Part shown: piece by piece, positions 4,607-7,270 of the stretch | Numbering within the stretch: the stretch's first letter is position 1 | How the letters are laid out: every line of letters starts with the position of its first letter | Origin: Escherichia phage MiataMamis | Sequence record: PP925834.1 | Length of the DNA: 64,000 nucleotides | Strand: one strand, 5' to 3' | Notes under the pieces: model-generated | Told to the model about the DNA's origin: nothing | Database searches by the model: none | The model's input: the letters and a program-made list of their open reading frames with translations, nothing else | Program-made: the position numbers and the translations under genes

Positions 4607-4962
4607 TATTCTACCTCCTCTTCTTTTTCTTCGGCATTAGTTTCATGGCTACCCCACTCTGGAGTTTCCACCTCGATAGTAAACTCACGCACTACACGGT
4701 AATTGCCCATGAAGCGCTCCACTTCGTCAAGGCTTATGGAGAGGCCATTGGCAACCAGGTCTGCAGCACCCTCTTCTACCAGGTAGTCCAGATTGGCTTC
4801 CAGAGCTTCAGGTTCAAACCCTGTCAATGCAATCAGATAACCTTTCCCTTCATCAGGGAGGACAATACATCCCAACTGATTTTCTTTAAAAAGGCAGTGA
4901 CCATCATTATTGATTGGGTGTTCATTGCAGTAAATAGCTGCACGATAAGTAACTTTAGACAT
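4606..4962 (-). CDS. hypothetical acidic protein; start trimmed to MSKVTYRA
   Basis: Track ORF 4606..4983; second in-frame ATG at 4962 has AGGAGA SD 6-8 nt upstream; first 8 codons lie inside the 29-bp inverted repeat. Confidence 0.5.
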   Translation of the reverse strand: MSKVTYRAAIYCNEHPINNDGHCLFKENQLGCIVLPDEGKGYLIALTGFEPEALEANLDYLVEEGAADLVANGLSISLDEVERFMGNYRVVREFTIEVETPEWGSHETNAEEKEEEVE

Positions 4963-4967
4963 CGGTA
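4939..4967 (-). repeat. 29-bp perfect inverted repeat, copy 1 (taccgatgtctaaagttacttatcgtgca read on minus strand)
   Basis: Exact reverse-complement match to 6801..6829; spans the start codon and first 8 codons of the 4606..4962 CDS. Confidence 0.85.
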
Positions 4968-4975
4968 AGGTCTCC

Positions 4976-5254
4976 TTAGGCAATTGTCATTTTACATTCT
5001 TGAAATTTTAACACAAGACGGTGATTGTGTCTAGTGTCTAAAAAGATTTTTTCAACCATCAGGCACACGGTATAACCGTCCATCTTGTTGACAACAAAAT
5101 CTCCAGGATGAGGGAGGATGTCTCCCGGATTGGGAAAACATAACCCGCTCAGAAAGGCATCATCGGTGGTGGACTTAATGGATTTCCACACACTATCTGC
5201 CTGAACATTCTCACCAACATAATATACACTACCACATGACTTCATCATAGTCAA
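4976..5254 (-). CDS. hypothetical protein (92 aa)
   Basis: ORF track. Confidence 0.45.
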   Translation of the reverse strand: MTMMKSCGSVYYVGENVQADSVWKSIKSTTDDAFLSGLCFPNPGDILPHPGDFVVNKMDGYTVCLMVEKIFLDTRHNHRLVLKFQECKMTIA

Positions 5255-6150
5255 ATCTCCGCGTAAATTAAACTGGAATCAGTATACTTCTTTAATGGGT
5301 AAATATCCTGTCCATAGATGCAATCATTAAACACCTCATCTACCCAAAGGCTACACTTATATCCCATCATTTCTAAAACACCCATCTCTTCTTCGGTAAA
5401 CTTATCACCGCTCTTGCAAGATGTCAATACCTCATTCTGAACTCTTGCTACCTCGAAGCGGTTATTGGCAATATCGCTATTGGCGATCAAATACTCACCT
5501 AGAGGGTGTGCGGCATTAAAGATGCACAGTGGACGGTTGACGTAATAGTCTCCGGGTGTATAAAAATTGTTGAGGTCTTTCACTAGAACATTCTTATCAG
5601 TCACTTCATTTATAACATCATGCATATCGCACATCTTTATATGTTTGAGGATTCCATCCCCCATCACAAAATAAAAACTTGCTGAGACACTTTCGGCATA
5701 GATCTTACTAGATCCGTTGTAGTTGTATTTTACGCGAATGCTCACTGGGGTTTTTCCTGTCGCGTTAGCCATCATCCAAAGGAACGGAAGTTCAAACTTC
5801 TCTTCTGAGGAAACAAAAGGTGAAGTTGCCAGAGATCTGAAACCTCCAGAAAAGTTGAAAGTCACAGAACCGCTTCGGCGGTATGATACCGCGTATTCTA
5901 CTTTTATATCGACATACCCATTGGAATAGGTGTGTCCTTCATTATCTAAATATGTCCACTTATCAGACCCAGATACCAATCTACGCTCAATAACCTTCAT
6001 CACTACAGGAATTAGTGGGTTGGTACAAACCGCTTTTGAAGTAGCTTTATCATCTAAAGCCTCGTAAATTGCAGAAAGGATGTCCCCAGCTGAAAGATTG
6101 GTTGTTATGTCCTGTTTCCACCGCGTACTAAAACTGTTAAGATTTGCCAT
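5251..6150 (-). CDS. hypothetical protein (299 aa), first gene of leftward early operon
   Basis: ORF track; AGGAG SD upstream of ATG; downstream of candidate promoter 6191..6219. Confidence 0.55.
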   Translation of the reverse strand: MANLNSFSTRWKQDITTNLSAGDILSAIYEALDDKATSKAVCTNPLIPVVMKVIERRLVSGSDKWTYLDNEGHTYSNGYVDIKVEYAVSYRRSGSVTFNFSGGFRSLATSPFVSSEEKFELPFLWMMANATGKTPVSIRVKYNYNGSSKIYAESVSASFYFVMGDGILKHIKMCDMHDVINEVTDKNVLVKDLNNFYTPGDYYVNRPLCIFNAAHPLGEYLIANSDIANNRFEVARVQNEVLTSCKSGDKFTEEEMGVLEMMGYKCSLWVDEVFNDCIYGQDIYPLKKYTDSSLIYAEI

Positions 6151-6190
6151 AAGTAAGTGCTCCTATGTTAGTTTTCTTTCGAATGGGTGC

Positions 6191-6219
6191 ACTATATTAT
6201 GGAGTTAGAGTAAAGTCAA
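6191..6219 (-). promoter_or_regulatory. sigma70-like promoter (TTGACT-N17-TATAGT) for leftward early operon
   Basis: Hexamers and 17-bp spacer read from minus strand, about 35 nt upstream of SD/ATG of the 5251..6150 CDS. Confidence 0.45.
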
Positions 6220-6232
6220 CACGTTTTTGATG

Positions 6233-6261
6233 TTGACATCTGTTGAGACAATTGATACGAT
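6233..6261 (+). promoter_or_regulatory. sigma70-like promoter (TTGACA-N17-TACGAT) for rightward early operon
   Basis: Perfect -35 consensus TTGACA, 17-bp spacer; lies back-to-back with the leftward promoter. Implies the first ATG of the track ORF (6227) is upstream of the transcription start. Confidence 0.4.
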
Positions 6262-6292
6262 TTCTTCACTTACAGAGCACGAGAGACAACTC

Positions 6293-7270
6293 ATGAATCT
6301 TGAAAAATATTATACACCAGAAGAGTTAGAGCGCTTGCTCAAAAAATATAGACGCAAACAGAATAATGCACGGAAACGAGATATAGAGTTCGACCTGTCA
6401 TGGGAAGAATACCTCCTATTTGGTAAAAAACTTTTAGGAGATGGAGTATGCGACTATACCCTTATACCTTTTGACATGCACACAGATGAAAACGGGCTGG
6501 GAAATCCTTTCTACCCATCTCTGGAGCGGATAGATGATGAAGGTCCTTATGCGGTTGATAACTGTTGTGTGGTGGGATTGAGATGCAACTCTCTAAAGGA
6601 CTGTCTGGTAGATAAAAAGACTGCGGTCTCGATTAAAGACGAAACTGATCGAAAAATTGTCCAGCAGATGATGCTCCACCTGAGCGAAGAGCGTATGGAG
6701 AAATTGAAAGGTGATTATACTTTTGAAGATTTCATCTTGCAATATGGAACGGAAGAGGATAAACTAGCACTCTTTGACGAAGAAGAGGAGGAAGATATGC
6801 TACCGATGTCTAAAGTTACTTATCGTGCACCCAAGAAGCACATTTCCGACATTGTAAACGAGCCTATCACAGAAGAGATTGAAGAAATGACGCAACAGGT
6901 GCATGAAGAGGAAAAAGAGACTCAGTGGGTCGAAGAGGAGCTTACAGAAGAGGTTCCTGCACTACCTGATGATGTTGAGATTGCCAAAGCTTACACTTTC
7001 TATTGTCAAGCGTTCTACGATGTAGGTATGAAAGTTGATCTGTCGTTCAGCCAATTTAAGAGTTCGTATATTCGCAAATGCTGTGCTTTAACTGGTGAAC
7101 GTCTTGGAGCTGGACTTAAACCCCTGTTGGTGACCGACTGGAATAAAGGTTTCACTAAAGGAAACTTTATGGTAGTATCTCCAATTATGGAGAAAGCTAT
7201 GACAGATCTCATGAAGACCACCCGCATGACAATGACCGAGTTGGCAGGTATTTTCAAACACGTTAAATAA
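6293..7270 (+). CDS. hypothetical protein with a degenerate HNH-like motif and an acidic linker; start uncertain (track ORF begins 6227)
   Basis: Track ORF 6227..7270; in-frame ATG at 6293 is downstream of the predicted promoter. Motif SLERIDDEGPYAVDNCCVVGLRCNSLK resembles an HNH core but lacks the catalytic His. Contains internal copy 2 of the 29-bp inverted repeat. Confidence 0.45.
   Translation: MNLEKYYTPEELERLLKKYRRKQNNARKRDIEFDLSWEEYLLFGKKLLGDGVCDYTLIPFDMHTDENGLGNPFYPSLERIDDEGPYAVDNCCVVGLRCNSLKDCLVDKKTAVSIKDETDRKIVQQMMLHLSEERMEKLKGDYTFEDFILQYGTEEDKLALFDEEEEEDMLPMSKVTYRAPKKHISDIVNEPITEEIEEMTQQVHEEEKETQWVEEELTEEVPALPDDVEIAKAYTFYCQAFYDVGMKVDLSFSQFKSSYIRKCCALTGERLGAGLKPLLVTDWNKGFTKGNFMVVSPIMEKAMTDLMKTTRMTMTELAGIFKHVK
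6801..6829 (+). repeat. 29-bp perfect inverted repeat, copy 2
   Basis: taccgatgtctaaagttacttatcgtgca; identity ends abruptly on both sides; encodes MSKVTYRA in frame inside the 6293..7270 CDS. Confidence 0.85.

Follow-up and report, generated by a model that had tools for sequence, protein, structure and literature searches.

The window analysed here, a stretch of 64,000 nucleotides (nt) from Escherichia phage MiataMamis (PP925834.1), contains a perfect 29-base pair (bp) inverted repeat, whose left arm (4939..4967, minus strand) forms the start of a gp008-like gene and whose right arm (6801..6829, plus strand) lies inside a gp011-like gene. We regard this repeat as most probably the scar of a one-off templated mutation bounded by microhomologies, by which the gp008 start was copied into the gp011 gene through either a long-range template switch or a short-patch ectopic conversion. 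The window comes from a Vequintavirus coliphage (rV5-like, Murica-type), and its region 4300-7600 matches 119 phage records with 88-98% identity.

The 29-mer TACCGATGTCTAAAGTTACTTATCGTGCA has exactly two occurrences in the window, the two arms, which are identical in 29 of 29 positions and whose identity ends abruptly on either flank. None of 100 dinucleotide-preserving shuffles contained a match to it, even with up to three mismatches allowed, so that the chance expectation is zero. The pair is the only perfect inverted repeat of at least 18 nt in the window, where the runners-up reach at most 90% complementarity and no other perfect repeats hint at a recurrent process. The left arm, which we identify as the donor, comprises a 5-nt leader (TACCG) and codons 1-8 (MSKVTYRA) of the gp008-like gene (4606..4962, minus strand; 118 amino acids (aa), PHROG 12908), the counterpart of rV5 gp008. 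The right arm, the derived copy, sits in the inter-domain linker of the recipient, the gp011-like gene (6293..7270, plus strand; 325 aa, PHROG 3118), which encodes a Srd-like 'anti-sigma factor / HNH' two-domain protein. There it closely follows the acidic run DEEEEED and encodes, in the same codon frame as the left arm, residues 172-179 and the end of the preceding Leu-Pro. A BLASTP comparison of the 118-aa with the 325-aa protein found these eight residues in common and no further similarity.

An earlier, sequence-only reading of this DNA had described the repeat at these positions, the start codon and first codons on its minus-strand arm, the internal, in-frame position of its plus-strand arm after an acidic linker, the abrupt end of identity and the unrelated proteins, and had taken the repeat for a nucleotide-level element rather than protein homology; all of this is borne out. 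Two of its figures need correction: the internal ATG, which it placed at 6814, lies at 6806-6808, and the segment between the arms, given as 1.86 kb, measures 1,833 nt (4968..6800). It had also seen the arms as bracketing the divergent early promoters. The predicted divergent sigma-70 promoters (~6191-6261) do lie within this spacer, but they are not closely bracketed, as the spacer also holds the Shine-Dalgarno (SD) sequence of gp008, two whole genes corresponding to rV5 gp009 (4976-5248, minus strand) and gp010 (5251-6150, minus strand), and codons 1-169 of gp011.

The extent of the swap is defined by an alignment of the window with rV5, FV3, Aya and others. The rV5 linker reads GATATG TC ACCGATG CAGGATTTTAAAAATTTCATGGCTG ATCGTGCAGC CAAC, encoding DMSPMQDFKNFMADRAANK; the window linker reads GATATG CT ACCGATG TCTAAAGTTACTT ATCGTGCA CCCAAG, encoding DMLPMSKVTYRAPKK; and the gp008 start, the donor, reads CCTT ACCGATG TCTAAAGTTACTT ATCGTGCAGC TATT. 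The unconverted allele thus matches the donor at 7 nt and again at 10 nt, in the same order and the same frame. The 7-nt match, ACCGATG, marks the 5' switch point (6802..6808, plus strand); unconverted rV5 has it at 7251-7257, and the gp008 start has its reverse complement. The 10-nt match, ATCGTGCAGC, is found in both the donor and unconverted rV5 and marks the 3' switch point, of which the window retains ATCGTGCA (6822..6829, plus strand), position 6830 now being C. Because both ACCGATG and ATCGTGCAGC pre-existed in the unconverted allele, the event comes down to the in-frame replacement of 25 nt (CAGGATTTTAAAAATTTCATGGCTG) by 13 donor nt (TCTAAAGTTACTT, 6809..6821, plus strand), a net loss of 12 nt, or four codons, which turned PMQDFKNFMADRA into PMSKVTYRA. 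The donor accounts for the whole 13-for-25-nt swap as well as for the substitution 6801 C>T. Comparable configurations of an inverted 10-mer and 7-mer occur about 20 times per 50 kb of rV5, and the pre-existing substrate for a switch was nothing special.

A 60-nt probe centred on the right arm matched 115 phage records. The left arm is found in all of them, but only 27 match with the right arm and its gp011 flanks, whereas 88 match through the left arm alone. A 110-nt probe around the right arm returned the same 27 records, 26 of them at 100% identity and one (ECP32) at 97.3%. In every relative examined, the left arm is preserved with 0-2 mismatches and with its native flanks (SD upstream, AIYCNEH downstream), and even a 70%-identical gp008 homologue still begins with MSKVTYRAAIYCNEH, which identifies gp008 as the source. 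The right arm is missing from rV5, FV3, V18, APECc02, Phage 203, EduardKellenberger, SYGMH1 and Aya, all with both genes intact; the 88 arm-less records have in its place a 41-nt alternative in the gp011 linker, which is 12 nt longer and encodes PMQDFKNFMADRA. In IMG/VR, an exact scan with the arm core gave a single relative, which has the left arm but not the right.

Among the 27 carriers, the left arm has TGCC in PMBT16, A51.2 and nomine and two changes in Alma, while in ECP32 both arms are altered, in ways that do not correspond. The arms are therefore imperfect in five carriers, with no compensating change in any of them. If the perfection of the repeat mattered, the arms would be expected to co-vary; as they do not, they have not co-evolved.

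A separate observation concerns 16 GenBank records labelled 'Campylobacter phage' (MG0656xx, host C. jejuni), which are 94-98% identical to E. coli Vequintavirus across 4300-7600. Five of them match the 110-nt right-arm probe and two (C12, C2) bear the right arm itself. Their label or host assignment looks doubtful.

The distribution of the right arm bears on the possibility that the repeat is a functional cis-element common to two mRNAs, either as the site of a regulator or as an imported initiation region, whose internal start at 6806 would yield the gp011 C-terminal domain as a separate product. Each copy reads in the sense direction of its mRNA and has an in-frame ATG, and a purine-rich GAGGAGG precedes internal ATGs at 6797 and 6806. 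Yet the copy begins only 5 nt before the ATG, leaving the gp008 SD outside the copied stretch; GAGGAGG is 14 nt away from the ATG at 6806; and the purine run with the two in-frame ATGs after it is kept in both linker alleles, including the unconverted one. Moreover, 77% of the relatives lack the copy, the arms drift independently, and RNA folding is unremarkable around either copy (z -1.4 and -0.9), with likewise nothing significant at the ancestral site. We therefore consider a cis-element unlikely, and the shared translation-initiation cassette proposed in the sequence-only reading finds no support, since the SD was not copied, the copy is not conserved and the folding is not unusual.

Neighbour-joining trees, computed from 200 nt on each side of the right arm, place all arm-bearing genomes into one very tight clade. 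This clade has the FV3 type as its sister and branches from within arm-less rV5-type lineages, with Aya outermost, and all arm-less lineages in these trees have the 41-nt form. Further, the linker of an outgroup, Mydovirus KNP2 (DMKEHMAEVEKNH), resembles the long form (QDFKNFMAERAANKH) and not MSKVTYRA, and the neighbouring DNA differs by 5-12% between lineages, against an identity of 29/29 between the arms. Taken together, the nesting of the clade, the outgroup linker and the identity of the arms in diverged surroundings indicate that the right arm is young and derived, and that it arose once. The converse polarity, with a repeat ancestral to the genus and a right arm lost elsewhere through replacement by the 41-nt form, would become admissible with a rooting on the Murica branch, which would let either state be ancestral. 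It is nonetheless improbable: besides the identity of the arms and the resemblance of the outgroup linker to the 41-nt form, the latter is common to three separate lineages, including the most divergent, Aya, and has no detectable donor of its own.

After its origin, the right arm came to lie in differing backgrounds. The carrier inoa is Phage-203-like left of ~6700 and Murica-like beyond, and ECP32 is FV3-like except for a Murica-type patch of ~250 nt around the right arm. The occurrence of the arm haplotype on these differing backbones indicates that it was passed on by ordinary homologous recombination. Both genomes are strongly mosaic across the window region 4300-7600.

The derived right arm, the microhomologies and the single origin support the view that the repeat is a recombination scar, which had been the third option of the sequence-only reading. 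We propose that a single templated mutation occurred in the ancestor of the Murica-type gp011 allele, whose linker would by chance have matched the gp008 start, 1.8 kb away on the other strand, at 7 nt and 10 nt. A growing 3' end would have left the gp011 linker template, paired with the gp008 start at one of these microhomologies, copied ~13-31 nt and, at the other, resumed synthesis on its own template, thereby turning 25 nt into 13 nt and producing a perfect inverted repeat of 29-31 nt. As to the enzymology, which we infer, two routes appear feasible. At a replication fork, a leading-strand end could have switched onto the single-stranded lagging-strand template, with the left arm within about one Okazaki-fragment length. 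Given the size of Okazaki fragments, this template could remain exposed at a distance of 1-2 kb behind the fork. Alternatively, microhomology-primed synthesis could have repaired a break in the linker. The converted haplotype would then have spread to other backbones by homologous recombination.

The recipient site was probably a permissive one. gp011 has two conserved domains with an acidic linker between them; among the genera of Vequintavirinae this linker is hypervariable, both in its length and in its sequence, and it is nearly missing in PVP-SE1. A linker that is acidic and of variable length would explain why the patch was tolerated; the patch is most likely neutral. Within Vequintavirus, indels of 3 nt and 9 nt are seen in the linker (window 6780-6900, alignment columns 150-230).

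Among known processes, the event most resembles the quasipalindrome or short-range template switches, such as the Ripley-type templated mutations of T4 and E. coli, and the four-point model of Loytynoja and Goldman (PMC7202029, PMC7954356). In these, one event that copies a reverse complement within the same molecule accounts for a whole cluster of changes; as in the event proposed here, it is bounded by microhomology and converts an imperfect inverted repeat into a perfect one. Of the features expected under the four-point model, a reverse-complement patch, an identifiable ancestral state with a single origin and microhomology at both switch points are found here, while the donor accounts for part of the mutation cluster, leaving three adjacent substitutions over. 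The differences are the spacer, which at 1,833 nt contrasts with tens to hundreds of nt, the net 12-nt deletion, and the linking of the coding start of one gene to the interior of another. More generally, template switching is known to perfect imperfect inverted repeats and can replace several adjacent residues at once (PMC7202029, PMC8604942, PMC7954356). In yeast (PMC8604942), it homogenizes repeat arms within coding sequence, replacing several neighbouring residues in one tolerated step, as seen here; however, the yeast arms are ~4-11 bp long with spacers of a few bp within one gene, whereas in the present case an eight-residue N-terminal peptide was taken from another protein. Microhomology-mediated break-induced replication, fork stalling and template switching (MMBIR/FoSTeS) and gene-conversion switches (bioRxiv 10.1101/2023.08.09.552703), which accompany break repair or replication restart, share with the proposed event the invasion at very short identities, the short ectopic copying and the return. 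They are known from eukaryotes and bacteria, whereas here an rV5-like phage would supply the polymerase and recombination machinery and the site of the break is hypothetical.

Several points weigh against our interpretation. First, the distance to the donor lies far beyond the range of described short-range template switches, whose templates are tens to hundreds of nt away (PMC7954356); we therefore assume a long-range or repair-associated variant of the process. Second, three window-specific substitutions beside the patch (6800 T>C, 6830 G>C, 6835 C>G) are not explained by the donor, and a search for a second template that would explain them found only chance 10-13-mers. With the donor T in place at 6801, the first of these is synonymous. 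All three may have arisen later by mutation or through mistakes made while a break was repaired. Error-prone repair typically leaves additional point mutations close to the tract (MMBIR/FoSTeS; bioRxiv 10.1101/2023.08.09.552703), and the substitutions slightly favour the repair route. Third, the rooting depends on Aya together with a weak similarity to the outgroup in a linker that is hard to align. Fourth, the neutrality of the patch is an assumption. Finally, the evidence on orientation discussed below comes from assembled sequences, with which rare inverted molecules are compatible.

The same patch could in principle have been acquired by another route, either through repair templated by gp008 mRNA or through exchange with a co-infecting phage that had a separate gp011 C-domain gene starting with MSKVTYRA. 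The arms are sense in both genes, as an RNA template would also make them, and mosaic exchange is rife in the genus. However, a stand-alone MSKVTYRA gp011 C-domain gene is absent from the phage records, the sequence on either side of the right arm is plainly homologous to that of the unconverted allele as far as the microhomologies, and no evidence supports RNA-templated repair during phage infection. We accordingly give this route little credence.

The least plausible explanation is the one to which the sequence-only reading had given the lead, a site-specific or programmed inversion switch with the arms as crossover sites, so that a flip would reconnect the divergent early promoters and exchange the ends of proteins: a perfect inverted repeat does surround the segment with these promoters and in-frame products are predicted from the sequence, but 88 of 115 relatives lack the right arm while both genes are intact, and five of 27 carriers have imperfect, uncompensated arms. 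Absence or degeneration of the repeat in close relatives with both genes intact is a finding that the sequence-only reading itself had named as counting against a switch. The in-frame prediction follows from the common codon frame of the arms, since inversion would join gp011N to gp008 in one fusion and place a free gp011 C-domain downstream of the gp008 SD. All 119 related records are collinear with the window in BLAST, and each of the 27 arm-bearing records matches in one orientation and as a single BLAST piece. A 137-kb contig from a human-gut metagenome is likewise collinear and in the native orientation, so that the inverted form, which the sequence-only reading had suggested looking for in related genomes, is absent from the carriers and from this contig. 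An exact scan of bacterial genomes for the arm core found none. A search with gp008 against 5.8 billion protein clusters returned proteins starting with MSKVTYRA and one unrelated gp008-gp007 fusion, but no gp011N-gp008 fusion or otherwise N-terminally extended form; as an inversion yields both chimeras on one molecule, this result bears on the gp011 chimera too.

The requisite enzyme and site are also not apparent. No invertase or integrase is annotated in rV5 from 1 to 50 kb or in the arm-bearing FFH2 from 50 to 139 kb, and the arm shows no dyad symmetry of the hix/gix type, with 7 of 14 pairs at best. The serine-invertase segments (Mu G/Gin, P1 C/Cin, Salmonella H/Hin) resemble the present arrangement in having inverted repeats around a segment whose flip alters gene ends or promoter links, but the window differs from them in its lack of an annotated recombinase and of a dyad-symmetric site, in its single orientation and in a repeat that is not conserved in the genus. 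FFH2 does contain, at 72751-73409, two open reading frames (ORFs) of ~100 aa annotated as 'transposase-like protein' and 'transposase'; these are labels only, and the ORFs, ~65 kb away, neighbour an exonuclease gene that belongs to the replication module.

Distinct from a programmed switch is the question whether the 29-bp repeat, once formed, lets the 1.83-kb segment invert now and then by homologous recombination in Murica-type phages, giving minority genomes with the fusion and swapped operons. We think this improbable, and find it equally improbable that rare inversions in Murica-type lysates would have any biological meaning. The predicted inversion junctions are AAATAGC-TGCACGATAAGTAACTTTAGACATCGGTA-GCATATCTTCC and CTAAGGAGACCT-TACCGATGTCTAAAGTTACTTATCGTGCA-CCCAAGAAGC. 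Were such inversions to occur, they would create the in-frame gp011N-gp008 fusion together with a free gp011 C-domain and exchange the downstream operons between the early promoters. The repeat would then be an accidental, newly born mechanism of heterogeneity, open to selection.

We found no Pfam domains in gp008, gp009, gp010 or gp011. The gp008-gp007 fusion, an in-frame product of 186 aa, comes from one public (Logan) assembly. An 11-nt direct repeat (ACTAATGCCGA), with copies ~50 nt apart across the gp008/gp007 boundary (window ~4579-4640, minus strand), lies at the expected fusion junction. The fusion is consistent with a microhomology deletion and suggests that such events do take place in this part of the genome.

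Elsewhere in the window, three consecutive and related ORFs of 87 aa (8780-9043, 9043-9306 and 9306-9569, plus strand) have the pattern GTVV...VTE.D..I.ILGE and form a tandem paralogue array just downstream of a metallopeptidase/VWA gene. A 62-nt direct repeat of 84% identity (21013-21074 and 23071-23132, spacing 2,058 nt) falls into the counterparts of the paralogous rV5 tail-fibre genes gp030 and gp033. A GC-rich hairpin, CCCCGCCGAAGCGGGG, recurs after an A-rich run at 2038-2065, 28452-28479 and 33959-33986; these hairpins likely constitute a family of intrinsic terminators.

The repeat is an instance of a known mutational process acting over an unusually long range, and no consequence for phage biology or therapy with rV5-like phages is evident. 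It offers a caution, in that a perfect inverted repeat around promoters looks like a switch, while the comparative data point to a young mutational scar. In a lytic phage, a templated mutation over 1.8 kb can here be followed from its donor, its recipient and the ancestral state to the microhomologies on both sides, and the outcome is the transplantation of an eight-residue N-terminal peptide into the linker of another protein. The case thus adds a data point on how phage replication or repair may create multi-residue changes in a single step, and on how inter-domain linkers may absorb them.

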